DNA of 64,000 bases. Source: an uncultured Gammaproteobacteria bacterium (GTDB lineage Bacteria; Patescibacteriota; Microgenomatia; Daviesbacterales; UBA10151). The translations under genes were made by a program, and so were the position numbers. The DNA is taken from positions 33,557-97,556 of the forward strand of contig CAZYPW010000001.1 of NCBI GenBank assembly GCA_964649615.1, given 5' to 3'. Position 1 is the first letter of the stretch. The number at the start of each line of letters is the position of its first letter. This document shows, piece after piece, positions 882-63,635 of the stretch. The notes under the pieces were generated by a model. The model saw nothing but the letters and a program-made list of their open reading frames with translations. It did not search any database and was not told the origin of the DNA.

Positions 882-1074
882 TGTGGTGTTCCATCCCACC
901 TAGCTTTTAGGCAAAGTGGGGAAGGAACAAGGGAACTTGGTGTAAATCCAAGACTGTGCCGCAACTGTAATCGAGAAGCTATAGCTCTGAGCGAGCAAAG
1001 CGAGTCGAAGAGTCAGGAGACCGACCACATTATAACCCTGAGCAAAGTCGAAGGGATCCCGTAGCAGGAAAAAT

Positions 1075-2538
1075 ATGCCAGAACAAGAAACGCTCAAACG
1101 TCCAGAAATTTCACCTCTTATTCAACCTCAAATTGACCCAGGAGGAAAACTGCAGCCTATTTCCTGGCTTAACGATACAAGAATTATACTTAGACCGGAT
1201 GACCGAATTTCCCACCTTGTAGAACCTCAAAGGACTCAAGAAATACCGGTTGCACCTGGATTAGGGAGAAACTCTATTCTTGAAAAAACAGACTGGAATT
1301 CTGAGTTAGAAATAACCACCCTTTTTAAAAACTACAACAGATATACGAAAGAAGGAAAAGCTCCGCAGGAGGCTCTGCAGTTTTCTTTGGAGGAAGTTGA
1401 AGCAAACATCAGAACCTTCACTTTGGAATTTATCCAGGCCAGGCTGGTGATTCCTTTTTTAGTCAGCCTAGATTCCTCATCTGAATATAGCATTCTGTCT
1501 AAATACGATAGCCGTCCTATTGTTTATAAAACCAGTGAACAAGAAAGATTAGGGGGGAATAAGGAAGCAATGATAAAAGTAGATGCTTTTATGAGAGATG
1601 CACCAGTTGGTTCAGTGGCTATTACAAATAGTTCTCCGGGGGAAACCGGCTGGTTTGATAGCCAGGGCAAAAAGATTATTTATGATGATAACCAGATGAC
1701 TTTTTACGTAAAAGATGAGAACAGTTTTTATGCTTTCACCATAGTTTCAGATTTAAATTATGACCAATCAAGAAGTTATTCCATTGGATTTGGTATTGAT
1801 GAAGTAAGGCTGAATGGTAGTACAGAGATGGAAAGAGTTTCTAACTTGGTGAGAAATCCAATTCTACTTTCCCGTCCCCAATCAGGGCAATCTCCAGTTG
1901 ATGATGCGATAAATAGAATCCTGGCCATCAGGGGAACAGGCATGATTAGAATCAAGAAAAAAGATGGTATACCTGAATATAAACCTGTTTCAGAGTTAGT
2001 GGAAGGTATTAAAAATAGAGAAAATATGCTTAATTTTTGTGAGGAAGCAGAGCAGGTAATCAGCCAGCTAAGAGTTTTTGTTTTTTCTCAAATAGATCAG
2101 TTAGGAGATTTTAGTATTCAAGAAACCATTTCTGAGGTGGTTGATAAAGCAATACTTGAAATTACGCGTATAAATCGTCCTAAAAGTTCCAAAACAGAGA
2201 TCAGAAAAGTTAGTCCCAGCAGCGCTGTTTATTTTAATAAACCCACTATAGCTTCATACACCCCAGATGTAGCAGAATGGATGCAAAGAGATTATAGAGG
2301 AGAAATTGCTTATTTAGAAAATCAAAAAGGATGTGCAGGAGGAAGTAGGATGGGGACATTTAGTATTGGTTCTTCTGCAGTAGTATCTTTTGGGGGAGTA
2401 TCTTCATCTGGAAGTAGGATTTTTAGCTTCGGATCTACCTCTTTGGAATCAAGTAAAAAAGGCAAAACCTGTGTTGGCTGTGGCGAGGTAAACTACTGTA
2501 CTAAAGATTGTTATAAATGCGGAGGGATGTTAATTTAA
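1075..2538 (+). CDS. Hypothetical protein with a Gly/Ser-rich, Cys-rich C-terminus (CVGCGEVNYCTKDCYKCGG).
   Basis: Long ORF from the track with no recognisable domain. The C-terminal CxxC...CxxC cluster is consistent with a Zn-ribbon-like tail. Confidence 0.5.
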   Translation: MPEQETLKRPEISPLIQPQIDPGGKLQPISWLNDTRIILRPDDRISHLVEPQRTQEIPVAPGLGRNSILEKTDWNSELEITTLFKNYNRYTKEGKAPQEALQFSLEEVEANIRTFTLEFIQARLVIPFLVSLDSSSEYSILSKYDSRPIVYKTSEQERLGGNKEAMIKVDAFMRDAPVGSVAITNSSPGETGWFDSQGKKIIYDDNQMTFYVKDENSFYAFTIVSDLNYDQSRSYSIGFGIDEVRLNGSTEMERVSNLVRNPILLSRPQSGQSPVDDAINRILAIRGTGMIRIKKKDGIPEYKPVSELVEGIKNRENMLNFCEEAEQVISQLRVFVFSQIDQLGDFSIQETISEVVDKAILEITRINRPKSSKTEIRKVSPSSAVYFNKPTIASYTPDVAEWMQRDYRGEIAYLENQKGCAGGSRMGTFSIGSSAVVSFGGVSSSGSRIFSFGSTSLESSKKGKTCVGCGEVNYCTKDCYKCGGMLI

Positions 2539-2653
2539 ACATTGACAAGGTTAGCTAAGTTAGACAATATAAAATCATGCAAACAGTTAGCCTTACTCAA
2601 ACAAAGATAAATTTTTACTAAGCAGGGAAAACCAGTGGTAAAGCTAGAAACTT

Positions 2654-3025
2654 ATGGCAGAAGTAACGAATTTGACAAATCGTAAGGTTTGTTATAATAT
2701 TAGAGATATGTTAAACACAAACATTGTTTCTATAGATGAACTTCGTTCTAACCTGGCTGATATTATCAACCGCGTAACATATGCTAATGATAAGGTAGTG
2801 GTTAAAAAGTACAACCGGGAAGCAGCTGTTCTTATCAGTTTGGATGAATACGAAAAGCTTTTGGATCCTAGGAAGAGGTTAAGCAAGACTGCATGGGAAA
2901 AAAGTTTCAAAAAACTTGATAAAATACGAGCTAGAATCCCTAAAATGGACCCAGTAGAATTAGATAAAATTATTGATGAGGAGGTGGAAGTGGTTAGGGC
3001 AGAGAAAAGGGCTAGAGGTGAATGA
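2654..3025 (+). CDS. Phd/YefM-family antitoxin.
   Basis: N-terminal IVSIDELRSNLADIINRV...VVVKKYNREAAVLISLDEYEKLL matches the Phd/YefM fold. It overlaps the downstream PIN gene by 4 nt (ATGA). Confidence 0.65.
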   Translation: MAEVTNLTNRKVCYNIRDMLNTNIVSIDELRSNLADIINRVTYANDKVVVKKYNREAAVLISLDEYEKLLDPRKRLSKTAWEKSFKKLDKIRARIPKMDPVELDKIIDEEVEVVRAEKRARGE

Positions 3026-12848: not shown

Positions 12849-12897
12849 ATATCCTTCGGCAGGCTCAGGACAGGCAATTTTGAGCTAGGTTTTGGGA

Positions 12898-20989: not shown

Positions 20990-21055
20990 ATAGACACCTC
21001 GAAGGAGTCAAAGCCCACCTTCGAGGTGAGAAAAAAATGTTAAAATACCCATGTT

Positions 21056-21648: not shown

Positions 21649-22043
21649 AACGTGAATTTTCTGCTGGAGGGATTGTATTTAATAAGGGAAAAGTGCTTTT
21701 AACCAAGCACTCACAAAACAAACACTGGAGTTTTCCCAAGGGTTTAACTGACGGGCAAACATTAGAGGAAGCTGCTTTAAGAGAAGTTAAGGAAGAAGGA
21801 GGGGTGGAGGCAGAAATAGTGGGTAAAGTAGGTTATAACAAGTATGTCTACATCTTAAATGGAGAAAAAGTATTTAAAGTAGTAACTTATTTTTTAATGA
21901 AATATCTATCCGGTGATCCCAAGGATCATGATTGGGAGGTTGAAGAATCTGGATGGTTTACTCCGGAGGATGCCTTAAAACAACTTACATTTTCCCAAGA
22001 CAAACAATTACTCAAAAAAGCTTTGGAAATATATGGCAAGTAA
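21645..22043 (+). CDS. NUDIX hydrolase.
   Basis: Nudix box GLTDGQTLEEAALREVKEEGGV. Confidence 0.85.
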   Translation: MKREFSAGGIVFNKGKVLLTKHSQNKHWSFPKGLTDGQTLEEAALREVKEEGGVEAEIVGKVGYNKYVYILNGEKVFKVVTYFLMKYLSGDPKDHDWEVEESGWFTPEDALKQLTFSQDKQLLKKALEIYGK

Positions 22044-22659
22044 TTTATTTGTCTCCAGAGGTGGAGAAAAACTTCAAAAAGCGATTGACGATTTCCGATT
22101 AACGATAAACGATAAAACGATTTTGGATGTTGGTTCCTCAACAGGCGGATTTGTAGATTGTTTGTTGCAAAATGGAGCTAAAAAAGTTTATGCAGTTGAT
22201 ACTGCATATGGAGAGCTGGCTTGGAAATTAAGAAATGATCCAAGAGTTGTGGTAATGGAGAGAACCAATATTCTTCATTTGGAAAGCCTTCCTGAAGCTA
22301 AAAACACCTCCGAGGTGGGCTCTGACTCCTCGGAGGTGAAGAAAGTGGATCTAATAACTATAGATGCTGGTTGGACCAAGTTGGAGTTGATCTTACCTAT
22401 TGTTAAAAAGTTTTTAAAACCGGATGGTTTTATCATTGCTTTATTAAAACCCCATTATGAAGCAGATAAAAAGCTTTTAGTCAAAGGAGTTTTGCCTGTA
22501 GAAAAAGCTGAAATAATAAAAAATAAAGTGGTTAAAACGATTAACGATTTACTCGCTTCGCAGCGAGGCGAGCGATTAACGATAAACGATGTAATTGACT
22601 CACCAATTTTGGGTGGAGCAGGTAACAAAGAATACCTACTGTTTATAAGCAGAGCTTGA
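22033..22659 (+). CDS. tlyA: TlyA-family RNA 2'-O-methyltransferase (FtsJ-like, without the S4 domain). It carries two short in-frame repeat insertions.
   Basis: VSRGGEKLQKAIDDF...LDVGSSTGGFVDCLLQNGAKKVYAVDTAYGELAWKLRNDPRVVVMERTN. Confidence 0.8.
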   Translation: MASNLFVSRGGEKLQKAIDDFRLTINDKTILDVGSSTGGFVDCLLQNGAKKVYAVDTAYGELAWKLRNDPRVVVMERTNILHLESLPEAKNTSEVGSDSSEVKKVDLITIDAGWTKLELILPIVKKFLKPDGFIIALLKPHYEADKKLLVKGVLPVEKAEIIKNKVVKTINDLLASQRGERLTINDVIDSPILGGAGNKEYLLFISRA

Positions 22660-34317: not shown

Positions 34318-34419
34318 GATCTAATTTTCGATCTTTTAGAGGGGGATGAATATGGAATAATTTTAGATTTTGAGGCTAATTTATAAGCAAAAAGGGGATA
34401 TTAGGGGAAAAGATAATTC

Positions 34420-35994: not shown

Positions 35995-36114
35995 CTACCT
36001 GCCAGTTTATTCTCTGCTAGATTATCTTGATAATATACTCTAAGTCATTCAAAAAGCAAGATATATCTAGTAAAGATTTCTCTAGCAATCTACTAAGTTA
36101 GTAGGTGGATTGCT

Positions 36115-36327: not shown

Positions 36328-36379
36328 CCTTCACCCCCTGCTGGATCGGTAATTTTCTCTCTGTTATACTCGCAGTAAT

Positions 36380-37501: not shown

Positions 37502-37505
37502 TCCG

Positions 37506-38174: not shown

Positions 38175-38195
38175 AAAACTTTAACTTGTAAATCT

Positions 38196-38897
38196 TTAGA
38201 CTTTTGTTTTTAGAGAGTTATTGCCTCTGTTATACTTACCCCTCAATACTTGAGCTTTCTCTGGCAAGATATAAGCATTTCGGAGGGTAGTTTCAATAAT
38301 ATCCAGTCCAGTGTTCAGCTCTTCTTCAAGCGGTTCTTGTAATTCATGAGCAGAAGCATTTCCCATATATCTATTAAGATGGAGTAACTCTGCTTCTTGA
38401 TCAGTCATCAAACCCATCTTGGCTAATCCGTCAATTTTTTTCTCAAGGTCACCAGTAATTATACCTTTATCTTTACATATTGCTTCGATAACGGCTCGCA
38501 TACCAATACTTGTAAGTATTGGTAATTTTTTATTAAAGGCCGTGACACACTCTTTGTATATTCTTGCAACAATTTTAGGTATATAGTGATGATCTTCTAT
38601 TGGGGTTTTTGTTTCGTGAGGGGATGGATAAATTGTTGTAACTACATCAAACTCTCCAGTTTGAGGATTATAATCTTCACTAAATACGTATTCTTCTAAA
38701 AGGCAAACCGCCTCACAGCCTTGACATTGGAGCGTATAGAAGGTAGAGACTGTCCACATCCCATCCTCGTTGTCCCAACTATCCTTTTTTTGAACTTTAA
38801 ATAAAATTTTGTGATTGGTGGCTTGCTTGCATATCCTGCAAAAAATCTTTCTCGTTTCTTCTATATTCTTTTTTCGAGTTTTGCTTAGTGGACTCAT
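38196..38897 (-). CDS. DUF4145-domain protein with an N-terminal CxxC...CxxC zinc ribbon.
   Basis: N-terminal CRICKQ...CQGCEA. C-terminal helical domain ending ...NRYMGNASAHEL (DUF4145-like). Confidence 0.5.
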   Translation of the reverse strand: MSPLSKTRKKNIEETRKIFCRICKQATNHKILFKVQKKDSWDNEDGMWTVSTFYTLQCQGCEAVCLLEEYVFSEDYNPQTGEFDVVTTIYPSPHETKTPIEDHHYIPKIVARIYKECVTAFNKKLPILTSIGMRAVIEAICKDKGIITGDLEKKIDGLAKMGLMTDQEAELLHLNRYMGNASAHELQEPLEEELNTGLDIIETTLRNAYILPEKAQVLRGKYNRGNNSLKTKV

Positions 38898-39002
38898 TCA
38901 GCAGATGTTACCACATTTTTAGATTCTAACTTCTTACAAACCCAGCAGGGTCTAAGGTAGAAAGTTTATTATAAAGACTTACTACAACTTGTTCATTTAT
39001 CA

Positions 39003-39042
39003 AAAATGAAGCTAAGTTCGAGTAAGAACTATCTGGCTCCCC
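39003..39042. repeat. attR-like direct repeat overlapping the 3' end of tRNA-Asn.
   Basis: See 28663-28740. Confidence 0.7.
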
Positions 39043-39304
39043 CGCGTGGATTCGAACCACGAACCTTGATCTTACAAGTGCTCCTAATTTACATCAGGAC
39101 TTGGACTATCTCATAACCTTAGCTTTCTTTAGGTTCCGGGCGTATAGTCTCTGAACCTTCCCCGATTTCATCGGGGCTTGGCTGCGGATTATCCTTCGAT
39201 TACACTCAGGACTTCCCGACAATTAACCCAGTTTTTCAACTCCGATTTCTCGGAGAAGCTGCAATATTTTACAGGATCCCGCTCTACCATTGAGCTACAG
39301 GGGA
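39034..39304 (-). tRNA. tRNA-Asn (GUU) interrupted by a 196-nt group I intron in the anticodon loop. Exon 1 is 39271-39304 and exon 2 (with CCA) is 39034-39074.
   Basis: Joined exons: TCCCCTGTAGCTCAATGGTAGAGCGGGATCCTGT|TAAGATCAAGGTTCGTGGTTCGAATCCACGCGGGGGAGCCA. This closely resembles E. coli tRNA-Asn, with anticodon loop CTGTTAA. Confidence 0.75.
39075..39270 (-). other. Group I intron (196 nt, no ORF).
   Basis: The 5' exon ends in U and pairs with the internal guide GCAG, giving a U-G wobble at the splice site. A P2 hairpin CTCCGA-GAAA-TCGGAG is present. Conserved R element GTTCAGAGACTATA and S element GAGATAGTCC form P7. The intron ends in G. Confidence 0.75.
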
Positions 39305-39557
39305 ATATATTAAATTTTTAATGAACCTTTTCCCATGTAGCAACAACCCGCTCTTCCTGGGTGAACTTGAAATTATATTTCTGCTTCGCAGATAAAATGT
39401 TGTTCACCCGCTTAAATGTCATTTAGACATTTAAGCCCATTTCGCTACAGGGGATTGTTAATGTACCTTTGGAATTTTACCATTTTAAAGACTCTAAATC
39501 TATATTTCTGAACCTATATATTCAAACCTGGGTTTTTTAATTCCCAGAACTTCCACT

Positions 39558-44151: not shown

Positions 44152-44406
44152 TTAATCTATTAAGTAGATTTCATCAATATTTTTTGAGATATTTTTTGAG
44201 CCGCCCTTGGCCATACCAGCCATTTTTAAAAGAGGATTATTTTTGATCCTTCTTTTTTCTGCGGCTGCAATTAATTTTTCATATTCACGAGCCATTTTAT
44301 CAATAATGTCTCTGATGATTTGAGAACGTGATAGATCGGTCAGCTTAGATAATCGATCCAAAGTATTTACAGAATTAGGATTTAAATATATTTGATATCT
44401 ATTCAT
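44152..44406 (-). CDS. Ribbon-helix-helix (CopG/VapB-like) antitoxin. The start is taken at the internal Met.
   Basis: MNRYQIYLNPNSVNTLDRLSKLTDLSRSQIIRDIIDKMA. It ends 5 nt before the PIN gene start. Confidence 0.55.
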   Translation of the reverse strand: MNRYQIYLNPNSVNTLDRLSKLTDLSRSQIIRDIIDKMAREYEKLIAAAEKRRIKNNPLLKMAGMAKGGSKNISKNIDEIYLID

Positions 44407-44545
44407 ATATACACCGTAACATATATGGTGTATATAGTCAAATATATTGAAATTAGGTACAAACTTTGATGCCCGTCTCGCCAAAGGCGGACGAGGCGAG
44501 CAGAAGAGTACTTGGAAAATTTAAAATAAGTGTTAATATATATAA

Positions 44546-44974: not shown

Positions 44975-45255
44975 GCTTCCCTCTTAAAAGATTTACAGTT
45001 TCTGGAAATTCCATGCTGCCAACTCTCAAACCAGGCCAGGATGTTTTGGTTTGGTGTTGGTTTAATAAATATAAAGTGGGGGATATTGTAGCTTTCAAAA
45101 AAAACGGCAAAGAAATGATTAAACGTATTCATTTATATCACGGCCGTAGCATAAGTGTATTAGGGGATAATGAAAAAGAGAGCACTGATAGTAGAAATTT
45201 TGGGTCAATAGAGAAATCTCAAATAATTGGTAAAGTGGTTTGGTTTCAAAGGTAG
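44971..45255 (+). CDS. sodX: S26-family signal-peptidase-like NiSOD maturation protease (SodX).
   Basis: SGNSMLPTLKPGQDVLV...GDIVAF. It overlaps sodN by 4 nt. Confidence 0.8.
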   Translation: MSFPLKRFTVSGNSMLPTLKPGQDVLVWCWFNKYKVGDIVAFKKNGKEMIKRIHLYHGRSISVLGDNEKESTDSRNFGSIEKSQIIGKVVWFQR

Positions 45256-45929
45256 CCATCAAAGCGATCATATCTGATATTTATTTCTTCTATTCCTGAT
45301 TCAATTAACATTAAAGCCACAGCATTTACAAAACTATGTGATCCAGCCAGATAATAAATAGTATTAGGTATTAAGTATTTAGTATTAAGGGAATTTAAGC
45401 GGCCGTTTTGGCTGGAATTGTAATAGATAATAGTTAAGTTTGGTAGATTACTTTTCCATCCCTCTAGCTCTTCTTTAAAAAGAAAGTTATTATCTGAATT
45501 AGAATAAATTAGAGTTATGGAAGTTTGTAACTCATTATCAGCTACATACTTAATAATTGATCTGAAAGGAGTAATGCCCACTCCTCCTGCTATAAATACT
45601 GCATTCTCTGTTTCATCTAAAATAAATGTTCCAGCAGGATGCGAAGATTCTATTTTATCTCCTACCTGTAATTTTTCTACAAATTTTTTAAAAGGGCTGA
45701 TTCCTTTTTTGGGAGTAACCATCAAAAAATCCTCAGTTGGGGAGGAAGAGATAGTGAAAGCTCTGGTATCTCCACTAGGATCTTTTACTGGCAGTTTTAT
45801 ATCTAAATATTGCCCAGCATAAAAATGGAAACCCTGCCTGCCGGCAGGCAGATCTTGAGGTCTTTCCAAAATTAAACAAAGATACTTATCAAAGTATTTT
45901 TTAATATCTTTAATTTTTAAGAGCATCAT
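45246..45929 (-). CDS. FNR-family FAD/NAD(P)-binding oxidoreductase.
   Basis: RAFTISSSP (RxYS-type FAD motif) and AGGVGITPFRS. Confidence 0.7.
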   Translation of the reverse strand: MMLLKIKDIKKYFDKYLCLILERPQDLPAGRQGFHFYAGQYLDIKLPVKDPSGDTRAFTISSSPTEDFLMVTPKKGISPFKKFVEKLQVGDKIESSHPAGTFILDETENAVFIAGGVGITPFRSIIKYVADNELQTSITLIYSNSDNNFLFKEELEGWKSNLPNLTIIYYNSSQNGRLNSLNTKYLIPNTIYYLAGSHSFVNAVALMLIESGIEEINIRYDRFDGYL

Positions 45930-48658: not shown

Positions 48659-48976
48659 ATGTCATTCCGAGTGAAACGAGGAATCTCTAGATTAAGAAGC
48701 TACTTTGTATATATCTTAGCCAGTAAAACAGGCACATTGTATATTGGTGTAACTAATAATTTAGAAAAAAGAGTTTATGAACACAAAAATAAATTAATTC
48801 CAGGATTTACAGCAAAGTATAATATTGATCGTTTAATGTATTATCAGGAATTTAATGATATAGAAGAGGCAATAGAGATGGAAAAGAAAATAAAGGGTTG
48901 GAGTAGAGAAAAGAAGATAAATCTTATTAAGACTATAAATCCTCACACTAAAGATTTAGCTGATAATTTAACCTAA
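48659..48976 (+). CDS. GIY-YIG nuclease-family protein (UPF0213-like), copy 1.
   Basis: YFVYILASKTGTLYIGVTNNLEKRVYEHKN...GWSREKK. Confidence 0.7.
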   Translation: MSFRVKRGISRLRSYFVYILASKTGTLYIGVTNNLEKRVYEHKNKLIPGFTAKYNIDRLMYYQEFNDIEEAIEMEKKIKGWSREKKINLIKTINPHTKDLADNLT

Positions 48977-52117: not shown

Positions 52118-52280
52118 GAGGCTATTATATCACCAATTTAAGGACTTTTCAAGGACTAAAATAAGTGATATGATTCAGCAATGAAAATACAATGTCCATC
52201 ATGTAAAAAATTTAAAGATTCTAACTATACCATCCAGGTGGTTAAAATTTGAGACTAAAGCCCTTCGATTACACTCAGGG

Positions 52281-52640
52281 TTATAATGTTTTAAGTTTTT
52301 CTAAGTCTCTTTTTATTAATGCTTCTTTCTTAGCTCTAGTCCAACCTTTAAGTTGTTTTTCTCTTTTCATAGCCTCAAGCAAGATAGGATAGTTTTCTGA
52401 ATAAATTAGTTTAAATTCTCCATTTTCTTTTGAAAATTTAGAAGCTCTTGTAGCTTTGTTTTTATGATCTGTTAATCTTTGTGCAAGATTATTTGTTTGG
52501 CCAATATATAAACTGTTGTTTAAAAATCGGAGTATGTAGACAGTATAGGGCATGGACGCTATATCCCTTCGACTCGATGACTCGCTCAGGCCTTCGGCTC
52601 TGAGGCTCAGGCTCGAAGAGGCGATTCGACTTCTGAACAT
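52281..52640 (-). CDS. GIY-YIG nuclease-family protein, copy 2. It has a repeat-derived N-terminal extension, and the core probably starts at the MPYTVYIL Met (~52520).
   Basis: MPYTVYILRFLNNSLYIGQTNNLAQRLTDHKN...GWTRAKK. Confidence 0.7.
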   Translation of the reverse strand: MFRSRIASSSLSLRAEGLSESSSRRDIASMPYTVYILRFLNNSLYIGQTNNLAQRLTDHKNKATRASKFSKENGEFKLIYSENYPILLEAMKREKQLKGWTRAKKEALIKRDLEKLKTL

Positions 52641-52711
52641 GAATCTTTTATGTTAAATTAAGTCGGTTATAACCGTGAGCGAGTCCGCCAAAGGCGGACG
52701 AGTCGAATCGG

Positions 52712-52783
52712 TTGCGGAGGTAGGAATCGAACCTACTGCCTGGAGATTATGAGCCTCCCGTGCAACCGTTACACTTCCCCGCT
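52712..52783 (-). tRNA. tRNA with anticodon CAU (Met). The A1/A72 mismatch at the end of the acceptor stem suggests the initiator tRNA.
   Basis: Minus-strand fold: anticodon stem GGAGG/TCTCC with loop CTCATAA, T-arm GTAGG-TTCGATT-CCTAC. Confidence 0.55.
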
Positions 52784-52810: not shown

Positions 52811-53056
52811 ATGTGGTTTGTTTATATACTCCAATGTGTTGATGGAAGCCTTTACACAGGATCAACTAATAATCTTAAAAAAAGATTTTTGGATCATCAA
52901 AATGGCAAAGGGGGGAGATATACCAGATCCCATAAAGTAGTTAAAATAGTATATTCAGAAGAGCTTAATACAAAATCAAAAGCCCTAAAAAGAGAAAGGC
53001 AAATCAAAAGCTATGATAAAAAGAAAAAAATTAAACTCTGGCTTGACCCAACTTAA
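52811..53056 (+). CDS. GIY-YIG nuclease-family protein, copy 3.
   Basis: MWFVYILQCVDGSLYTGSTNNLKKRFLDHQNG... Confidence 0.7.
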   Translation: MWFVYILQCVDGSLYTGSTNNLKKRFLDHQNGKGGRYTRSHKVVKIVYSEELNTKSKALKRERQIKSYDKKKKIKLWLDPT

Positions 53057-54572: not shown

Positions 54573-55886
54573 ATGAAAATAATTGTTTTAGCAGGTGGGG
54601 AAGGTAAAAGGATGTGGCCTATCCAAACAGACAAATGTCTGATCCCTTTTTTGGGTCAACCCCTTTTGTCCCATAACTTAAAAAAAATCAAAGATGTAGT
54701 AGATGGGGAATTTGTCATAATTTCTTCGCCTTCCAGTAAGGATGGGATAGGAAAAGTAGCTTCAGAGTTGAAATTACATTACAAAATAGCTGTTCAAAAT
54801 GAACCTAAAGGTATGGCTGATGCCCTACTCTCTGCAAAAGAATATCTGGAAGGAGAAGTTTTAGTGGTTAATGCTGAAGATATTTTGGACCCTGGGGCAT
54901 TTGAGATTAATAGGGAAGTAGATGTGAGCCTTGTTGGATTAAAAGTAGACAAATATTTTCCAGGAGGATATTTAAGGGTAGAAGGGGAAAGCCCTTCGAC
55001 TTCGCTCAGGGTTGGTAAGGTACAGGGAATAGTAGAAAAGCCAGGAGAGGGAAATGAACCATCAGATATGGTGAAGTTGGTAGTAGATTATTTTAAAGAC
55101 GGGAAAAAGTTAGTGGAATATTTAGAAAATGCTAAATCAGAGGTAGATGATGTTTATGAAAAGGCTTTAGATCAGATGATTTCTGATGGACTAGAAGTAA
55201 AGTTTAAAGAATATAGTGGAGTATGGATTCCATTAAAATATCCATGGCAGATTTTAGATATGCTGGCTTACTTTTTGGACAATATTGAACAACAGATTTC
55301 CCCGGGTGCAAATGTGTCTGAAAAGGCCATTATTGATGGAAAAGTAGTGATTGAAGAGGGAGTCAGAGTGTTTGAAGGAGCTGTAATTAAAGGTCCCTGC
55401 TATATAGGTAAAAATGTCATTGTGGGAAATAATTCCATGATCCGGGAATCTGAGCTGGAAGAGGGTTGCGTGACAGGCTTTAATTCTGATATTACCAGAA
55501 GTTACATTGGAGCAAATTCCTGGTTTCATACCAATTATATTGGGGATTCTGTGATAGAGGGAGATTTTGGGATGGGTAGTGGAGCAGTTTTGGCAAATTT
55601 AAGGCTGGATGATCATACAATCAGAGTACATGTGAATGGAGAATTAATTGATTCAGGAAGGCACAAGCTAGGGCTGATTGTGGGGAAGGGCTCAAGAGTG
55701 GGAGTGAATGCTTCAACCATGCCAGGGGTTAAGGTTGGTTCAAATTCATTTGTAGGGCCTGGAGTGACTTTATATGATGATGTAGAGGATAATAAGAAGG
55801 TTTTGGTAAAACAGGAGTTGGAAGTAACTGAACATACTCCAGCATTAACCAGCTATGATCAGTTTAGAGATAAGTTAGAGAAATAG
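54573..55886 (+). CDS. Sugar-phosphate nucleotidyltransferase with a C-terminal left-handed beta-helix (hexapeptide-repeat) domain.
   Basis: N-terminal IIVLAGGEGKRMWP, C-terminal hexapeptide repeats. Confidence 0.75.
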   Translation: MKIIVLAGGEGKRMWPIQTDKCLIPFLGQPLLSHNLKKIKDVVDGEFVIISSPSSKDGIGKVASELKLHYKIAVQNEPKGMADALLSAKEYLEGEVLVVNAEDILDPGAFEINREVDVSLVGLKVDKYFPGGYLRVEGESPSTSLRVGKVQGIVEKPGEGNEPSDMVKLVVDYFKDGKKLVEYLENAKSEVDDVYEKALDQMISDGLEVKFKEYSGVWIPLKYPWQILDMLAYFLDNIEQQISPGANVSEKAIIDGKVVIEEGVRVFEGAVIKGPCYIGKNVIVGNNSMIRESELEEGCVTGFNSDITRSYIGANSWFHTNYIGDSVIEGDFGMGSGAVLANLRLDDHTIRVHVNGELIDSGRHKLGLIVGKGSRVGVNASTMPGVKVGSNSFVGPGVTLYDDVEDNKKVLVKQELEVTEHTPALTSYDQFRDKLEK

Positions 55887-56792: not shown

Positions 56793-59549
56793 TTACTGTT
56801 GAATTTTTCTGCAAGCATCCATGATGCAGAAGTTACTAACAAGTGTCAGGCCAAAATCTTGAGCAAATTCTTCTGCTTTTTGGCTACTGACACCATCCTG
56901 CAGCCATACTGATTTGATCCCCCCTCGTTCAATTACTTCCTGCATGTGGGGAATAACCTCATTCGGCCGCCTAAAAATATCCACGATATCAATTTTTACT
57001 TTTTTAGGAATAGACATTAAATTTGGATAGGATTTTTCTCCCAAAGTTTGAGAAATATTTGGATTAACTGGAATAATTTTAAAACCACGTGATTTTAGAT
57101 ACTGGGCTACTCTGTAACTTGTTCGTTGTGGTTTATCTGATAATCCGACTATCGCAATAGTTCTGGATTTCTTCAAAAGATCAATTTTTTCTACCTCTTC
57201 TGTGTCAAGATTGGGAAGCAAAGATGCTTGCCACTGCCAACTCTCAATATCTTCCGGATCCTTACCCTGCATTTTTACAAATGCTTGATGTTCTGTTAAG
57301 GCCCTAGTGTATTTATTAGTAAATTTCTGATACACTCCTTCTTCGATTACCCCTAACTCATATGCCTTTTGTAAAACCTCTAAAGCCAAATGAAATCTGC
57401 TAGCACTGTTTCTTGCTAACATATCAAAAGGAGTGGTAGTGCCTCCTCTTTCCTGATATCCATGAACAGAAAAACGGTGAGGATTTTTAAGGTCAAATAA
57501 AATAGCTTTCATCACTTCCGGATAACCATGAAAATTAACTATCACCGGTTTATCGGTTGTAAAATACTGATCTGAATTAGGAATGGTTGGATGGTAAGCA
57601 CTCTTACAAGTACATTTGGCAGTCAGTCTTAAAATATTGACAAACCTCAATTTAAGGTAGGGAATATCTTTTTTTAAGATATCGATTGCTGCCAAACACT
57701 CTTTAGACACATAATCTCCAATACCCACCAGCACTACATCCGGATCAGGATCTGATGCAAAATCCCAAGTCAGTAAACCATCTTTTATAGACTTTTGAGC
57801 TTGAGCCAGACTTAGCCAGCGCAGTTCAGGAGTTTTTCCAGAAACTATGGTATTTATGGCATTTTGAGAATTCATAACCTCATCTAAAGTAATCAGCATA
57901 CTGTTTTCATCAACCGGAAAGTAAACTTTGACAAAATCATGATTTTTCTCAAGTAACCCGCTAATAAAACTGGGATTTTGATGAGAATAACCATTATGCT
58001 CCTGTCTCCAGGCAGAGGAGGAGAGAATATAATTCATGGAGGAAATATTTTCCCGCCAATTAGTTTCTCTGGTTGCTTTTAAAAATTTGACATATTGGTG
58101 AGCCATACTGGAAACAATCTGGGCAAAGGCTTCGTAGGTTGCAAAAACCCCATGTCTGCCGGTTAAAATATAGCCTTGAGAAAGACCATGTAGGTTATGT
58201 TCTGATAACATCTCCATCACTCTGCCATCCCTTGACAGGTGATTATCATCACTTTGGTGTGGCCAGACAAAAGCACGGGATGTTTCCTCAAAGACCTCAT
58301 CCAACCTATTGGAATAAGTTTCATCAGGGGACATCAATCTAAAGTTTCGTTGCCTTTTATTAAGTTCAAAAACTTTTTTAAAGTAAGTTCCGGCCATCCT
58401 CATACTATTTGATAGATGTTTACCAGGTACATCTACATCTTTGGCAAGTTGAGAAATTTTTGGTAACTTTAATTTTTTGTAAGTTCTGCCAAAAACGCTG
58501 TCGCAATCACCAACCTTTAACCCTTTATCCGGCAACAAGGATAAAATATCCTTTGAAAAACCTTTTTTCTCATTAAAAAGCTCATCAAATTTATAAGATT
58601 TAAGCCATTTTTCTAAAGCCGAAAGCTCCAAAGCATCATTTTTGGCATTAGGAGCAACCACCTGATGAGCGGCAGTTGTGCCCTCAATTTTTATGCCTCT
58701 TAATTTTTTTATACCGGTCCAGCCTTTGGGAGTTTTTAAGATAATCATAGGATAAATTGGACTAAATACTTCACCTTTTTTGGCCTTAAGTTTTATATCC
58801 TTGATTTTTTTATATGATTTTTCCAAAGCGGAGAGCATCTTTTGATAAATTTTTCTACCGCTAACAATAAACGGTAGGTACCCATAGCCTTTAAATAAAT
58901 TATTAAGTTCACCATCACTCATTCTGGCAAAAACAGTAGGCCCGGAGATTTTATAACCATTTAAGTGTAAAATCGGTAAAACAATACCATTTGTAGCAGG
59001 ATCTAAAAGTTTATTTAAATGCCATGCAGCAGAAAGCGGTCCTGTTTCCGCTTCTCCGTCTCCAATCAAACAAACTGCTAAAAGATTAGTGTTATCCATT
59101 ACTGCCCCAAAAGAGGTGGAGAGAGAATATCCTAATTCTCCGCCTTCCAAAATTAAGCCCGGAGCTTCCGGACAGGAATGAGATGAAAAACCATATGGCC
59201 AGGAAAAACTTTTGGAAAGGAAAGTAATACCTTTTTCATCAAGGGATGCCTTGGGATAATATTTACCCAAAGTTCCTTCAATAAATAGATTTGCCTGTAA
59301 AGCCGCAAATCCGTGACCGGGACCCAGTAGAAAAATTGTTTCCTGTTTATATTTTTTAACCAGGTAATTAGTGAAAGCATAGACAAAGTTTATCCCCGGA
59401 CAAGTACCCCAATGGCCAAAAAGTTTTGGTTTAATATCATGAGTACCCAAAGGTTTTTTTAGTAAAAAATTGTCCTGCAGATAAATTTGGGTGACTGATA
59501 AATAATTGGCAGCCCGTACAAATTTTTTAATATTTTCTAGTGGGGTCAT
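56793..59549 (-). CDS. xfp: Phosphoketolase (Xfp) fused to a C-terminal CoA-binding (YccU-like) domain.
   Basis: N-terminal ...YLSVTQIYLQDNFLL...GHWGTCPGINFVY... The C-terminal ~130 aa match a CoA_binding_2 domain. Confidence 0.85.
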   Translation of the reverse strand: MTPLENIKKFVRAANYLSVTQIYLQDNFLLKKPLGTHDIKPKLFGHWGTCPGINFVYAFTNYLVKKYKQETIFLLGPGHGFAALQANLFIEGTLGKYYPKASLDEKGITFLSKSFSWPYGFSSHSCPEAPGLILEGGELGYSLSTSFGAVMDNTNLLAVCLIGDGEAETGPLSAAWHLNKLLDPATNGIVLPILHLNGYKISGPTVFARMSDGELNNLFKGYGYLPFIVSGRKIYQKMLSALEKSYKKIKDIKLKAKKGEVFSPIYPMIILKTPKGWTGIKKLRGIKIEGTTAAHQVVAPNAKNDALELSALEKWLKSYKFDELFNEKKGFSKDILSLLPDKGLKVGDCDSVFGRTYKKLKLPKISQLAKDVDVPGKHLSNSMRMAGTYFKKVFELNKRQRNFRLMSPDETYSNRLDEVFEETSRAFVWPHQSDDNHLSRDGRVMEMLSEHNLHGLSQGYILTGRHGVFATYEAFAQIVSSMAHQYVKFLKATRETNWRENISSMNYILSSSAWRQEHNGYSHQNPSFISGLLEKNHDFVKVYFPVDENSMLITLDEVMNSQNAINTIVSGKTPELRWLSLAQAQKSIKDGLLTWDFASDPDPDVVLVGIGDYVSKECLAAIDILKKDIPYLKLRFVNILRLTAKCTCKSAYHPTIPNSDQYFTTDKPVIVNFHGYPEVMKAILFDLKNPHRFSVHGYQERGGTTTPFDMLARNSASRFHLALEVLQKAYELGVIEEGVYQKFTNKYTRALTEHQAFVKMQGKDPEDIESWQWQASLLPNLDTEEVEKIDLLKKSRTIAIVGLSDKPQRTSYRVAQYLKSRGFKIIPVNPNISQTLGEKSYPNLMSIPKKVKIDIVDIFRRPNEVIPHMQEVIERGGIKSVWLQDGVSSQKAEEFAQDFGLTLVSNFCIMDACRKIQQ

Positions 59550-59552
59550 TTT

Positions 59553-61346
59553 TTAGTAATCCTCCAAAGTTGAGGTATCACCCAGTTCCAGTCCCATCTC
59601 TTTGGCTCGTAGCAGCCTTCTCATTATTTTACCGGAGCGGGTTTTAGGTAGTTTATCAACAAATTCAATCTCTCTTGGATAAGCATGTCCTGCCAGATTC
59701 TCTTTAACAAAAGCAGCTATATTTTCCTTAAGTTTATCTGATGGTTGAGCATCCATCTTTAAAACAATAAAGGCCTTAATAATCTCTCCTCTTAAGGGAT
59801 CCGGTTTGCCGATCACTCCTGCCTCAACTACCTCTGGGTGTTCCACCAAAGCACTCTCCACCTCAAATGGTCCCACTCTCTCACTTGAAGTATTAATCAC
59901 ATCATCCGCTCTCCCCACAAACCAAAAGTAGCCGTCGTTATCCTTAATAGCTCTGTCTCCTGACAGATACCAACCATTTGAGAAATATGAATCAAATTTC
60001 TCCTTTTTTTTCCAAATAGTTTTCATCAGAGAATAAACAGTATTTGGTTTTAAAGCCAGATTTCCTTCTCTTCCCGCAGGCAATTCCTTTCCCTTCTCAT
60101 CAATAACAGCGGCTTTAATTCCCGGAAAAGGTTTACCCATAGAACCAACTTTAATATCCAAAATAGGATAATTAACTATAGCCATGCTACCCGTTTCTGT
60201 TTGCCACCAGGTGTCGTGAAAGGGAAGCCCAATTTTTTTATAAGCCCACCAGATTGCTTCAGGATTTAAAGGTTCTCCCACACTGGTAATATGACGAAGA
60301 GAAGAAAGGTCAAAGTCTTCGGGTTGAACTTTACTACCCATAAGCATTCTTATGGCAGTTGGAGCGGTATACCAGACAGTAACTTTATTTTCCTCAATAA
60401 CTTTATACCAATTCTCTGCTGAAAATTTACCTTCAAAAATAACTTGTGTACCACCTACGCCCCAAATTCCCAAAATACCGTAAACAACTCCGGTTACCCA
60501 GCCACAATCTGCTGTACACCAGTAAATATCATCACCTTGTACATCAAGGACCCATTTAGTAGTAAGAATTGCAGAGAGTACATCGCTATGGGCGTGAACT
60601 ACCCCTTTTGGTTTACCAGTAGTACCGGAGGTATATAACATATAAGAAAAATCATCTTTTTTCATATGGGCAATTTCAAATTTTTCTGAAGCTTTTCTCA
60701 TCTGATTAGTGAAAGAAACGATATTTTTACCTCTAGGCAGTTTTTTAGCGGTTTGTTCTACAATAATTACTTTCTCTAAATGTGGTAAATCTTTCCAAAT
60801 AGCTTTAATTCTTGGATAAAGGTCGGAATTGGTGATTAAAATTTTTGCCTGGCTGTCTGATAATCTGTCCATAAGAGCCAGTTCCTGGAAAGCTGAAAAA
60901 AGTGCGCCCACTATGGCTCCAATCTTTAGAATTCCCAAAAAAGCAACATAACGCTCCGGGATAGTAGGCAGGAAAATAAAAACCCGATCACCTTTTTTAA
61001 CTTTTAAGTTTTTTAAGACATTAGCAAATTTATTTGACTGCCTTGCCAAAGTGGCAAAAGTATATTTTTGGTGAGCGCCACTAACAGAATGGAAGATTAA
61101 AGCAACCTTATCTTTTTGGGGGGTTTCCAGATGCTGGTCAACTGCTATATAGGCTGTATTAAGGCTTCCATCCTTAAAAAATTTAAGGTATTCTTTTTCC
61201 GCTTTTTTCCAAGAAAATTCTTTATAAGTTTTATTGTAGTTTTTAAGATTTGGAGCTTTTTTAAAATTTGCTGAAGTTTTTTTAATAATCTTGAGTTGAA
61301 CACTCATAATTTTAAAGATTCTAGCATAGGATTGGAAATCGGTCAA
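59553..61346 (-). CDS. acs: AMP-forming acetyl/acyl-CoA synthetase.
   Basis: AMP-binding motif YTSGTTGKPKGVVH and a C-terminal Acs-like domain. Confidence 0.8.
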   Translation of the reverse strand: MTDFQSYARIFKIMSVQLKIIKKTSANFKKAPNLKNYNKTYKEFSWKKAEKEYLKFFKDGSLNTAYIAVDQHLETPQKDKVALIFHSVSGAHQKYTFATLARQSNKFANVLKNLKVKKGDRVFIFLPTIPERYVAFLGILKIGAIVGALFSAFQELALMDRLSDSQAKILITNSDLYPRIKAIWKDLPHLEKVIIVEQTAKKLPRGKNIVSFTNQMRKASEKFEIAHMKKDDFSYMLYTSGTTGKPKGVVHAHSDVLSAILTTKWVLDVQGDDIYWCTADCGWVTGVVYGILGIWGVGGTQVIFEGKFSAENWYKVIEENKVTVWYTAPTAIRMLMGSKVQPEDFDLSSLRHITSVGEPLNPEAIWWAYKKIGLPFHDTWWQTETGSMAIVNYPILDIKVGSMGKPFPGIKAAVIDEKGKELPAGREGNLALKPNTVYSLMKTIWKKKEKFDSYFSNGWYLSGDRAIKDNDGYFWFVGRADDVINTSSERVGPFEVESALVEHPEVVEAGVIGKPDPLRGEIIKAFIVLKMDAQPSDKLKENIAAFVKENLAGHAYPREIEFVDKLPKTRSGKIMRRLLRAKEMGLELGDTSTLEDY

Positions 61347-61374
61347 TTTTGTATGTGTTATACTTTTTCAATCA

Positions 61375-62627
61375 TGTTGCTTTATGAGTTTGAAGGCAAG
61401 CAGTTGTTTAAAAATGTAGGTATCAGTGTGCCAGTTGGTCAGTTAATCAGCAGTTCAGAGGATCAGCAAATCAATATTTCAGCACCCCTTGTATTAAAAG
61501 CACAAACCTTATCTGGTAAAAGAGCAGAAGGAGGGGGGATTGTCAAAATTGACAATGGACAATTGACAATGGACAATTTGAAAAAATTGTTTGGGAAAAC
61601 AGTAAATGGAGAAAAAGTAGAGAGAGTGTTGGTAGAGGAGATGGTGAATATAGAGAGGGAATATTATCTTTCTTTTTCTTATTCTACAGAAACCAGGGGG
61701 ACGGTTTTGACATTTGGTGAAGGAGGAACCGGGGCTGAAGGGAAAGGGGCTAGAACATATCCAATAGATTTAACAGAAGAAGATTCCCTAGGTGCCTGCC
61801 TAATCCACCTCCCAGGTGTACTAAAAGATGCTGCTAAAAAGCTTTGGGAGGTGTTTATAAAATATGATTGTGAACTGGCAGAAATTAATCCATTAGTAGT
61901 GATAAAGGGATACCCTTCGACTCGCTCCGTGGTTCTACAAGCTCACCACTCCGCTCGCTCAGGGCAAAGCAAGAATCCGCTGCGGATTCTTGCTTTGGAC
62001 GCCAAAATAATTTTGGATGATGACGCCACTTTTAGAAGAGAAATAAAATTCCCGGAAAGAAATCTTTTTGGCAGGCCTTCAACTGAAAGAGAAATTGAAG
62101 CAAGAAAAATAGATGAAGGGGATCATCGGGGTACTGCCGGATCTGTGTACTGGGATTTAGATGGGGATATTGCTGTGATTGCTGCAGGAGGAGGGGGGAG
62201 TGTGGTTAATATGGATGCTTTACTTGCTTTTGGGGGTAAACCTGCCAACTACACTGAACACTCCGGAAATCCTCCCAGAGAAAAATTAAAAAAACTAACC
62301 AAAATTGTTTTGAGTAAACCTAATTTAAAAGGTTGTTGGTTTGTGGGAGGTACTGCTAATTTTACAGATATTTATGAAACTTTAATGGGTTTTGTAGAAG
62401 GCTTAAGGGAAGTAGATCCAAAACCAGCATATCCAATAGTTATCCGCCGTGGTGGACCAAGGGATAAAGAGGCTTTTGAAGCATTAAAAGAAATAGGCAA
62501 AAAAGAAGGTTTTGATTTTCATATTTTTGGCCGGGAAACACCAATGACTTCTACAGCTAAGATTATGGTGGATCTGGCATACGGGAATATCAAAACTCAA
62601 ATGTCAAATGTTAAATCTACAACTTAA
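61375..62627 (+). CDS. ADP-forming acyl-CoA synthetase beta-like subunit (SucC-like ATP-grasp). It carries an in-frame GC-rich repeat insertion.
   Basis: ATP-grasp N-terminus. C-terminal AAGGGGSVVNMDALLAFGGKPANYTE. Confidence 0.7.
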
Positions 62628-62702
62628 ATCTCAAATCTTTTTAAGTTTTTAGATTTGAACTGTAGTTTTGAGTTTTGCGATTTGCGTTTTGAGATAAACA
62701 TT

Positions 62703-63635
62703 ATGGCTATTTTAGTTACTGAAAAAACTCGAGTCTTAATACAAGGCATTACTGGTAAAGAAGGTTCAAAAGTGGCTTTGCAGATGAGAAATTATGGTAC
62801 TAAAGTAGTAGCCGGAGTGACTCCCGGAAAAGGCGGGCAGGAAGTACATGGGATTCCTGTTTATAATTCTGTTAAGGAAGCATTAGAGAATCACCCAGGA
62901 ATAAATACCTCTTTAATTTCTGTGCCTAATTTTGCTGCTTTTGGGGCAATGAGAGAAGCTATTGAGGCAAAGATTTCCCTAATTAATGTTTTTACAGAAC
63001 ATGTCCCAATTGCTGATACTGCTAAAGCAATAGGGTTAGCCAGAAACACCTCGGAGGTGGAAGGAAAGATAAGAATTGTGGGACCATCTTCTATGGGAAT
63101 TATATCTCCAGGAATTGGTAAGGTGGGACAAATTGGAGGGGAAGACCCAAGAGGGGTTTTTAGAAAAGGTAGCGTGGGGGTTATTTCCAAATCAGGAGGG
63201 ATGGCCTCAGAGGTTTCCTGGATTTTGACTCAAGCTGGAATGGGGCAGAGTACTGTGATAGGGATCGGAGGAGATGTCCTGGAGGGATCTAGTTTTGCAG
63301 ATTTACTTTTGGAATTTGAAAAAGATCCTCAAACAGAAAGTGTGGTAATTTTTGGAGAAATTGGCGGAACTTATGAGGAAGATGCTGCAGAATTTATAAA
63401 AAGTGGAAATCCTTCGACTCACTCCGCTCGCTCAGGACCAAGGTTTACCAAACCAGTTGTAGCATTTGTGTCTGGTTTATTTGCAGAGACTTTGCCATCT
63501 GGAACCAAATTAGGTCATGCAGGAGCCATAGTATATGGAAATAAAGGAAGTTATAAATCAAAAATAAAGAGCTTAGAGGCAGCCGGTGTCAAAATAGCCA
63601 AAACCCCAGATGAAATTCCAGAGCTGTTAAAGTAG
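62703..63635 (+). CDS. Succinyl/acyl-CoA synthetase alpha-like subunit (SucD-like). It carries two in-frame GC-rich repeat insertions.
   Basis: VLIQGITGKEGS...GPSSMGIISPG...SKSGGMASEV...GIGGD...HAGAIV. Confidence 0.8.
   Translation: MAILVTEKTRVLIQGITGKEGSKVALQMRNYGTKVVAGVTPGKGGQEVHGIPVYNSVKEALENHPGINTSLISVPNFAAFGAMREAIEAKISLINVFTEHVPIADTAKAIGLARNTSEVEGKIRIVGPSSMGIISPGIGKVGQIGGEDPRGVFRKGSVGVISKSGGMASEVSWILTQAGMGQSTVIGIGGDVLEGSSFADLLLEFEKDPQTESVVIFGEIGGTYEEDAAEFIKSGNPSTHSARSGPRFTKPVVAFVSGLFAETLPSGTKLGHAGAIVYGNKGSYKSKIKSLEAAGVKIAKTPDEIPELLK

Follow-up and report, generated by a model that had tools for sequence, protein, structure and literature searches.

Short GC-rich repeats in a Daviesbacteria locus

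The 64,000-nt stretch of contig CAZYPW010000001.1 analyzed here (referred to as the window) has a GC content of 37%, and the closest named relatives of its SucC-like, SucD-like, and GIY-YIG proteins are from Candidatus Daviesbacteria (Microgenomates, in the candidate phyla radiation, CPR, or Patescibacteria). The window contains at least 12 copies of a short motif, TCGAC..GCTC, at which the local GC content is ∼58%. Copies are located in a GlmU-like sugar-1-phosphate nucleotidyltransferase/acetyltransferase gene (54573-55886), in the gene of an ATP-grasp SucC-like subunit with an ATP-citrate-lyase-type citrate-binding domain (61296-62627), and in a SucD-like subunit gene (62703-63635), as well as in a cobalamin riboswitch, in a group I intron, and around the gene of a 90-aa UPF0213-type GIY-YIG nuclease. 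A second hairpin family is present in the SucD-like gene and in a TlyA-family methyltransferase gene (22033-22659). The initial annotation had described these sequences as dispersed GC-rich mini-repeats inserted in-frame into conserved genes, which was borne out both by their enrichment and by ortholog alignments.

The data showed seven matches to CCTTCGAYT in the window versus 0.42 expected, a count reached in none of 100 shuffles, and four matches to CGCTCAGG versus 0.33 expected, which was likewise reached by no shuffle. All copies listed in the initial annotation are present, some of them offset by 1–2 nt. The copy in the nucleotidyltransferase gene is a short form, AGCCC[TTCGACTTCGCTCA]GGGTT (54990-55013, plus strand; 54992-55011 with a shorter stem), which is in-frame and encodes (E)SPSTSLRV. 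The SucC-like gene contains an in-frame long form (61913-61964, plus strand), inside which we found an additional nested copy, TGG[TTCTACAAGCTCA]CCA (61930-61948), with the direct repeat CTCCG on both sides (61925-61929 and 61949-61953). This long form is directly followed by the perfect hairpin reported by the initial annotation, CAAAGCAAGAATCCGC/GCGGATTCTTGCTTTG (61965-61997, plus strand), which has 16-nt arms and encodes QSKNPLRILA. The copy at site 2 of the SucD-like gene is the in-frame long form TCC[TTCGACTCACTCCGCTCGCTCA]GGA (63410-63437, plus strand), which encodes NPSTHSARSG. A newly recognized, degenerate "AG"-type copy, TCC[TTCGGCAGGCTCA]GGA, is intergenic (12852-12870, plus strand).

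A covariance model was built from 53 short-form copies and applied to the window. Four short copies matched at E ∼1e-6 (54990-55013, E = 1e-6; 1036-1055, E = 3e-6; 39192-39211, E = 4e-6; 52261-52280, E = 5e-6), which they do by construction, because they are themselves among the sequences from which the model was built. The same model found the long forms at 63408-63439 (E = 0.2), 52563-52593, and 983-1014 (E = 1.6) with E values from 0.2 to 1.6, and it also recovered 12850-12872 and 48663-48685.

In-frame insertions in conserved enzymes

The comparison with orthologs showed that every coding copy is a lineage-restricted in-frame insertion, as had been claimed for the nucleotidyltransferase, SucC-like, and SucD-like genes. 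In the SucC-like protein the insertion is located in the hairpin EINPLVV-DKxG-KVWALDAK, which has the short ancestral form in 92 of 120 orthologs, while 28 carry an insert, 13 of them of the TCGAC..GCTC family. The net gain in the window protein is 23 aa; the 28 aa proposed earlier were correct as an insertion, but not in size, because the remainder replaces the ancestral DKxGKVW. The empty allele, GAT AAA ACA GGT AAA GTT, is seen in the DNA of two relatives (L003 and L004), while two others are filled: the insert of L001 is exactly CCCTTCGACTTCGCTCAGGG, of which the same 20-mer is found in the nucleotidyltransferase gene of the window, AxCCCTTCGACTTCGCTCAGGGTT being common to both, and the insert of L002 is CCCTTCGACTCGCTCCGCTCGCTCAGGG. 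The insert of the window corresponds to the L002 form with a nested 19-nt copy flanked by CTCCG and with the hairpin with 16-nt arms added. In an AlphaFold model the inserted residues 183–200 have a predicted local distance difference test score (pLDDT) below 50, while the flanking strands are confident.

The other enzymes gave a similar picture. Site 2 of the SucD-like protein (NPSTHSARSGPR) is empty in 100 of 120 orthologs and carries a PST-type insert in eight, the window protein having gained 11 aa, while site 1 (NTSEV) is empty in 89 of 120, with a gain of 5 aa in the window. The nucleotidyltransferase gained ∼8–10 aa, and two of the four orthologs examined (L003 and L004) are without the insert; it is also found in L326 with the stem TCC/GGA versus CCC/GGG in the window, and L001 has a different hairpin at this site. 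The TlyA-like protein gained ∼16 aa, and most of 80 aligned representative homologs have no insert. The same GSDS(S/F)EV element is present in TlyA of close relatives and also at SucD site 1 of another Daviesbacterium, P0273. Conserved, lineage-wide parts of the proteins, with nucleotide similarity at these few sites only, would look different: the peptide segments are absent from most orthologs, and the motif recurs in intergenic DNA, the riboswitch, the intron, related genomes, and other phyla. Altogether, some hairpin insert is present in these loops in about one-quarter of the orthologs from Daviesbacteria; the view that such elements are uncommon outside Rickettsia does not hold within this lineage. 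Several hairpin families have made repeated use of the same one or two loops of each protein. All coding copies of the TCGAC..GCTC family have the same orientation and frame (PST..), and the translation always reads (N)PST..(S)LR/RSG, which gives short loops rich in Pro, Ser, Thr, Arg, and Gly that are probably disordered.

Second and further hairpin families

The second family, CACCTCCGAGGTG-GGCTCTGACT-CCTCGGAGGTG, is inserted in-frame in the TlyA-family methyltransferase gene (22305-22338, plus strand), where it encodes NTSEVGSDSSEV. Its minimal member, CACCTCGGAGGTG, encodes NTSEV in-frame at SucD-like site 1 (63047-63059, plus strand), and the palindrome CACCTTCGAGGTG is intergenic, upstream of tRNA-Arg (21014-21026, with no strand assigned). 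With at most one mismatch, CCTCGGAGGTG has seven matches in the window versus 0.26 expected. The NTSEV palindrome is a genuine inserted repeat family, and its proposed insertion in both the TlyA-like gene and the SucD-like gene agrees with this enrichment and with its absence from most homologs.

Several other hairpins were observed in the same genes or loops. A perfect 18-nt palindrome, CTGCCTGCCGGCAGGCAG (45834-45851), encodes LPAGRQ in a gene of a NAD-binding oxidoreductase (45246-45929, minus strand), and other Daviesbacteria have the same peptide, as SLPAGRQV, inserted in their SucC-like and SucD-like loops; this palindrome is a third in-frame hairpin family. Inserts of the types VIPAKAGI..SGMT..GNDK, HSRESGNP..WIPDQVGDDK, and STVIL..AQNDK, which are further hairpin families using the same hot spots, are found in the same SucC-like and SucD-like loops of other orthologs (P0006, P0007, P0013, P0017, P0021, P0026, P0269, P0270, P0317, and others). 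In the DNA of L325 (1250-1420) a pair of GTCATTCC..GGAATGAC hairpins holds a nested copy of a TCGAC..GCTC-type core.

The TlyA-like gene also contains, at 22552-22573, a GC-rich hairpin, CTCGCTTCGCAGCGAGGCGAG, which encodes LASQRGE in a segment absent from homologs and is flanked by a 12-nt direct repeat, ACGATTAACGAT / ACGATAAACGAT (TIND..TIND). A small hairpin, G(T/A)C(C/T)CGCC-AAA/TTT-GGCGGAC, has two copies in the window, one of which (44470-44500) is located at the 5′ end of a ribbon-helix-helix open reading frame (ORF; 44152-44484, minus strand), and the other (52684-52700) inside the motif copy adjacent to a tRNA gene.

Copies in RNA elements and beside tRNA genes

The aptamer of the cobalamin riboswitch spans positions 867-1043 (67.5 bits). 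The long form CTC[TTCGACTCGCTTTGCTCGCTCA]GAG (985-1012, minus strand) is located in its variable P6-extension hairpin, while the short form CCC[TTCGACTTTGCTCA]GGG (= CCCTTCGACTTTGCTCAGGG; 1036-1055, minus strand) is placed immediately 3′ of helix P1, ∼20 nt upstream of the ATG at 1075. The region 985-1056 was considered as a gene-deleted MITE (miniature inverted-repeat transposable element) derived from the GIY-YIG cassette, which was rejected; the supposed spacer TCAGGAGACCGACC is the conserved 3′ core of the riboswitch, and the copies are therefore two separate ones. The 487-aa ORF preceded by this riboswitch (1075-2538) has no Pfam match. The short form TCC[TTCGATTACACTCA]GGA (39192-39211, plus strand) makes up the P5-like hairpin in the group I intron of a tRNA gene (intron at 39082-39280, minus strand), and its loop agrees in all 14 positions with the loop of the 52261-52280 copy.

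The latter copy, CCC[TTCGATTACACTCA]GGG (plus strand), touches the stop codon of the GIY-YIG nuclease gene (52281-52553, minus strand), which is next to a tRNA gene and is bracketed by three motif copies. The second, the long form CCC[TTCGACTCGATGACTCGCTCA]GG (52565-52591) followed by the hairpin GCCTTCGGCTCTGAGGCTCAGGCTCGAAGAGGC (52565-52622 together, plus strand), is antisense to the gene and lies 11 nt upstream of its start codon. The third, not noticed previously, is the long form CCGA[TTCGACTCG-TCCGCCTTTGGCGGA-CTCGCTCA]CGG followed by the palindrome CGGTTATAACCG (52664-52711, minus strand), which begins at the 3′ end of tRNA-Met (52710-52783, minus strand). The annotated 119-aa ORF extends into the upstream repeat, while the 90-aa protein consists of the catalytic domain only (PF01541, E = 4.5e-17; UPF0213 structures 1zg2 and 1ywl), with no separate DNA-binding domain. 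Its subfamily has more than 1000 CPR relatives, many of them on short contigs, and the miscalled N-terminal extensions of these homologs read LSE(R)SESKG, which is the antisense motif.

The analysis of 80 metagenome loci showed a usual order of the cassette, in which the tRNA 3′ end (..CAGCCA) is followed by a sense copy with CCA in its stem, the palindrome GGCTATAGCC, a spacer, an antisense copy, and, after ∼10 nt, the ATG. Under a strict definition, 22 of 72 nonredundant loci have the antisense copy at most 130 nt upstream of the start of the GIY-YIG gene, as compared to a background of 0.03 per kb, and in several loci motif copies touch the stop codon. In 19 loci a tRNA-Gln gene (CTG or TTG) lies at most 400 nt upstream of the cassette on the same strand, and in ∼14 more it is further upstream (L125-L204). 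The tRNA 3′ end is duplicated further downstream in eight of 33 loci, which suggests site-specific acquisition of the cassette. A fragment, GGTTCTAGACCGGCCTGCTCAGCC, recurs beside many cassettes; it had no Rfam or ARAGORN match, so that a recognizable tRNA was rejected, and it looks like a decayed tRNA-Gln 3′ end. Relatives L001, L003, and L004 have a different GIY-YIG paralog at the syntenic position, without this cassette. In the window itself, three UPF0213-type paralogs with mutual identities of 37–43% are found within 5 kb (48701-48931, plus; 52281-52553, minus; 52813-53014, plus). Only the third is syntenic with L001, L003, and L004, and only the first two have a hairpin copy just upstream, that of the 48701-48931 paralog being a newly recognized, related degenerate hairpin, ATTCC[GAGTGAAACGA]GGAAT (48664-48684, minus strand).

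This arrangement could mean that the copies, instead of being independent elements, were left as footprints by the UPF0213 GIY-YIG cassette or serve as its targets. The nuclease would cut at hairpin-like sites, and repair from a donor with the cassette, or its imprecise loss, would leave solo hairpins behind, in a spread of the homing type as opposed to transposition. The bracketing of the gene by copies, the position of the cassette downstream of a tRNA-Gln or tRNA-Met gene and the duplicated tRNA 3′ end at some loci, the upstream hairpin of a second paralog, and the many homologs on short contigs, as expected of repeats, are all consistent with this explanation. On the other hand, the protein is a bare catalytic domain, the third paralog, whose position is kept across relatives, has no hairpin, no gene remnant was found at any coding-region copy, and the solo copies of other phyla and viruses have no GIY-YIG gene nearby. 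Hence, we consider it unlikely that the repeats as a whole originated in this way.

Architecture of the repeat unit

To describe the unit, 169 distinct CPR copies were drawn from the window, four related Daviesbacteria loci, and the 80 metagenome loci. The basic unit is ∼20–24 nt long and consists of an asymmetric conserved core of 12–14 nt, TCGAC-N2-3-GCTC, closed by a 3–5-bp stem. The pair next to the core is T-A or C-G, as seen in 59 of 64 short copies, and is followed by three to four further pairs, the sequence of which varies while complementarity is kept (CCC/GGG, TCC/GGA, CTC/GAG, CCG/CGG, TGG/CCA, and others). The 3-nt flanks are fully Watson–Crick in 44% of the 169 copies, as compared to 0–2.4% when the 3′ partner was slid. 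In the alignment of 53 sequences 79.9% of cells are paired, versus 60.8 ± 1.7% after shuffling (reached in 0 of 500 shuffles) and 27–39% after sliding, and all five stem pairs show double changes.

The mismatches in the stems comprise 12 G-T and 12 A-C, and an RNA-level structure on one strand was rejected, as there is no wobble bias. A thermodynamically stable hairpin was also rejected for the basic unit, which folds no better than shuffled sequences. The folding that the initial annotation had proposed was found strongly only at 61965-61997 (z −4.3) and 22305-22338 (z −6.2). Because the mismatches are unbiased and the isolated unit is barely stable, the constraint would be one on the DNA, folded into a hairpin or cruciform that a protein holds, instead of on a single strand of RNA.

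The long forms (28–52 nt) are short forms with a further copy or another small hairpin inside the core. Nested copies are found in the window (61930-61948) and in L137, L149, L195, and L183, with 5-nt direct repeats alongside, those of L137, L149, and L195 being bounded by CGAAG. A different hairpin, GTCCGCCTTTGGCGGAC, is located within the core at 52684-52700. The converse nesting is seen in L325, where a copy lies within a hairpin of the VIPAKAGI family. A regular target-site duplication was rejected, since duplications are confined to nested copies.

Distribution beyond the Daviesbacteria

The core, CCCTTCGAC-N2-3-GCTCAGGG, was found in at least 120 stretches of a species-representative genome collection, in nearly all bacterial phyla, and in at least 120 stretches of IMG/VR viral contigs. 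The genome matches listed include isolates of Bacteroidota, Actinomycetota, Spirochaetota, and Acidobacteriota and metagenome-assembled genomes (MAGs) from many further phyla; Treponema saccharophilum DSM 2985 and Microbacterium mangrovi are two of the cultured isolates. Among the matches listed, AA or AG makes up the free spacer in 81 of 133 from genomes and in 92 of ∼137 from viruses, and the 3′ flanks CGAACGG, TGAC, CAGGC, and ACCG recur; given this spacer bias and these flanks, the cross-phylum matches are not due to chance. In 275 further copies from those phyla and viral loci, which are outside the selection by the scan pattern, Watson–Crick pairing of the stem amounts to 57–68% versus 17–39% when slid, with 26 distinct stems.

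At gathering score, Rfam 15 has no family corresponding to the motif in the window, where the only overlapping matches are the host cobalamin riboswitch and group I intron, and no match overlaps it in 20 GIY-YIG loci and 18 cross-phylum loci, so that a known RNA family was rejected. A search of the literature for the DNA words, the encoded peptides, and in-frame repeats in CPR found nothing relevant. The peptides that these repeats encode in other phyla (..PFDKLRANG.., ..LRQAQGER.., ..LSLSKG..) are presumably familiar from spurious "hypothetical proteins."

The conservation of the core across phyla and the covariation of the stem, which implies selection on structure, could also suggest that the hairpins are functional sites selected by the host (sites of protein binding or processing, signals of the DNA-uptake type, or RNA hairpins in 5′-untranslated regions or tRNA processing), which spread by selection. 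The position of a copy, which in many CPR loci is fixed between the tRNA and the start codon of the GIY-YIG gene, and the copies in the riboswitch expression platform and in the intron hairpin, would be in agreement with such a role. However, enzymes with a copy gain residues, so that the copies are not fitted into codons already there; the copies are also missing from most orthologs and nest in one another, while the stems have no G-U versus A-C bias that would mark one transcribed strand and no Rfam family matches. DNA uptake signals are lineage-specific short motifs within existing sequence, which add no residues, whereas the copies described here add 5–23 residues and the TCGAC..GCTC core is common to many phyla. 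Selection by the host thus appears improbable, slightly more so than the footprint explanation.

Two further explanations have next to no probability. The segments could be ordinary hypervariable, low-complexity loops with coincidental or codon-driven nucleotide similarity, as loop length does vary across homologs, but identical 20–24-nt strings are found in unrelated genes and in noncoding DNA, the motif is enriched at least 15-fold over shuffles, and the copies stand out by their GC content. Chimeric joins at repeats during assembly or binning could be suspected because the window is from a MAG and repeats break assemblies, as the many short GIY-YIG contigs illustrate, but the same kinds of insert are present in intact ORFs of independent assemblies from NCBI, ENA, JGI, and Logan, and the core is found in genomes of cultured isolates.

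Other features of the region

An 8.2-kb stretch (30813-39047) is bounded by the direct repeat GCTCCCCCGCGTGGAT (30813-30828 and 39036-39051), which is the 3′ end of the intron-containing tRNA gene (39040-39320, minus strand). This gene is split by the 199-nt group I intron (Rfam RF00028, 92 bits), and ARAGORN makes no call for it. The left repeat is adjoined by the gene of a large serine recombinase (30885-32456, minus strand), followed by those of an AAA_25 ATPase, a YaaC-like protein, and a DUF4145 protein. With its lower GC content of 0.33–0.35, the stretch looks like an integrated mobile island.

A phosphoketolase gene (XFP_N, XFP, XFP_C; 56793-59549, minus strand) has an unusual fusion to a C-terminal CoA_binding_2 domain, and it adjoins an AMP-binding acyl-CoA synthetase gene and the SucCD-like/citrate-synthase-like cluster. 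Small genes of 23S_rRNA_IVP / bAvd-like four-helix bundles occupy variable positions in the syntenic region of relatives (L001 11176-11571, 2256-2621, and 18638-19000; L002 12082-12438), e.g., between the SucC-like and SucD-like genes of L001, and are absent there in the window.

Comparison with known repeat systems

The Rickettsia palindromic elements (RPEs; Ogata et al. 2000, listed in PMC3184786) are palindromes of ∼105–146 bp, described as confined to Rickettsia. The repeats of the window resemble them in being dispersed in a reduced AT-rich genome, in their in-frame location in genes, with other copies in RNA genes and intergenic DNA, in their restriction to permissive positions, and in having no known transposase; the alignments and the low pLDDT of the insert agree with in-frame insertion at tolerated positions. 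They differ from RPEs, which are long palindromes of ∼100–150 bp, in having only 20–28 nt (up to 52 nt when nested), a 3–5-bp stem, and a conserved loop of 12–14 nt. They also differ in having a CPR host and a core common to many phyla and viral contigs. Hence, the resemblance to RPEs proposed by the initial annotation holds in effect, but not in size, structure, or distribution.

Repetitive extragenic palindromic (REP) sequences, their doublets (REPINs), and the associated RAYT transposases (PMC3116915; PMC3337134) share with the repeats described here the 20–40-nt size class, GC-rich hairpins forming short imperfect palindromes, many copies, a flanked small nuclease gene, inverted doublets (here in L326 and upstream of the GIY-YIG gene), and the lack of regular target-site duplication. 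REPs are extragenic by definition and species-specific, with conserved stems and an HUH/Y1 partner enzyme (PMC3116915; PMC3337134), while the present repeats combine a conserved loop with a freely varying stem, the flanked gene encodes a GIY-YIG nuclease, and three TCGAC..GCTC copies and two copies of the second family are inside genes. No RAYT (Y1/HUH) domain was found among 32 window ORFs scanned with Pfam. REPs are also known to serve as targets of insertion sequences (IS) (PMC3184786; PMC12288879). By size and doublet formation the repeats are closest to REP/REPIN, while their effect is like that of RPEs. They are not MITEs, which have terminal inverted repeats of an IS, a fixed-length target-site duplication, and 50–500 bp: duplications are lacking at 57 of 64 solo copies, the units fall short of this length, and no parent IS was seen.

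Mitochondrial GC clusters and hairpin elements of yeast, fungi, and sponges (PMC2800124; PMC8811140) are also short GC-rich hairpins in very AT-rich genomes, located in coding and rRNA sequences and polymorphic among strains, but they belong to organelles, have no sequence relationship to the present repeats, are true palindromes in most cases, and are not common to distant lineages. The pneumococcal BOX, RUP, and SPRITE elements (PMC3184786) are small nonautonomous repeats sometimes fused in-frame to genes; however, they have at least 100 bp, mostly cause terminal fusions or disruptions, and are not found again and again in the same internal loops of housekeeping enzymes. The free-standing GIY-YIG homing endonuclease SegB of phage T4 (PMC2330249) is similarly encoded beside tRNA genes, but it has a DNA-binding domain and no hairpin repeats, as opposed to the bare 90-aa UPF0213 domain; of the features of GIY-YIG homing endonucleases, the window protein has the catalytic domain and lacks the separate DNA-binding domain.

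Origin and significance of the repeats

Taken together, these data suggest that the copies are probably a family of very small, GC-rich, hairpin-type dispersed repeats, apparently mobile, that survive only at permissive sites. We infer their selfish and mobile character from the distribution, the nesting, and the insertion polymorphism. New copies would arise by insertion of DNA at many kinds of sites, with a preference for positions in or beside existing hairpins, and because of this preference a first insert would turn into a landing pad. A trans-acting protein could read both the loop sequence and the stem structure, as a DNA hairpin or cruciform, and copy the unit into new sites. In a gene-dense AT-rich genome, purifying selection would then leave only harmless copies, at the tips of RNA hairpins such as the riboswitch P6 extension and the intron P5, beside tRNA and gene ends, and, when the frame is preserved, in surface loops.

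Several observations weigh against this explanation. The carriers of inserts are scattered on a neighbor-joining tree of SucC-like proteins, but the tree is star-like and poorly resolved, so that their scatter could reflect independent insertions or inheritance with recombination. The translation of the inserts is deduced solely from intact reading frames, and strict structural tolerance, as opposed to DNA targeting, could account for their clustering in one or two loops of a protein. By itself, the 20-nt basic unit does not form a stable hairpin (−1.7 kcal/mol, z ∼0), target-site duplication is absent at 57 of 64 solo copies, and duplications are seen only around nested copies, where the host core is internally repetitive. 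The copies are not associated with any transposase or other recombinase. In ∼2 Mb of loci from other phyla and viruses, neither tblastn nor hidden Markov model searches found a GIY-YIG gene near the copies, and no recurrent neighbor gene was found, so that GIY-YIG as a general partner of the motif is unsupported outside the CPR cassette.

Within the lineage, the 90-aa UPF0213 GIY-YIG nuclease is the only linked candidate for the mobilizing enzyme, at best a tentative one, and the linkage could equally mean that the nuclease cassette is a separate element that targets hairpins. More speculatively, the core with its free complementary stem may constitute a pan-bacterial, horizontally spreading mobile element of ∼20 nt, the smallest known, which would be recognized by loop and stem together, preferentially target itself and other hairpins, thereby building landing pads in protein loops, and depend on machinery not previously connected with any class of repeats, for which the UPF0213 GIY-YIG proteins are candidates. 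It would then represent an overlooked and widespread way for conserved proteins to acquire new surface loops. What is unusual here is the cross-phylum core and the loop-plus-structure architecture, while small dispersed hairpin repeats that can be fused in-frame are otherwise of a known kind.

The motif is a likely source of miscalled N-terminal extensions in small ORFs, as in the GIY-YIG gene and its homologs, and it may contribute to breaks of metagenome contigs, as many of the homologs are on short contigs. It also offers a lead to the function of the uncharacterized UPF0213 GIY-YIG nucleases. The colonization of housekeeping genes by in-frame repeats has been a textbook curiosity, mainly of Rickettsia; these data show that it is common in a CPR lineage, which provides a concrete, testable case of selfish DNA creating new protein loops.

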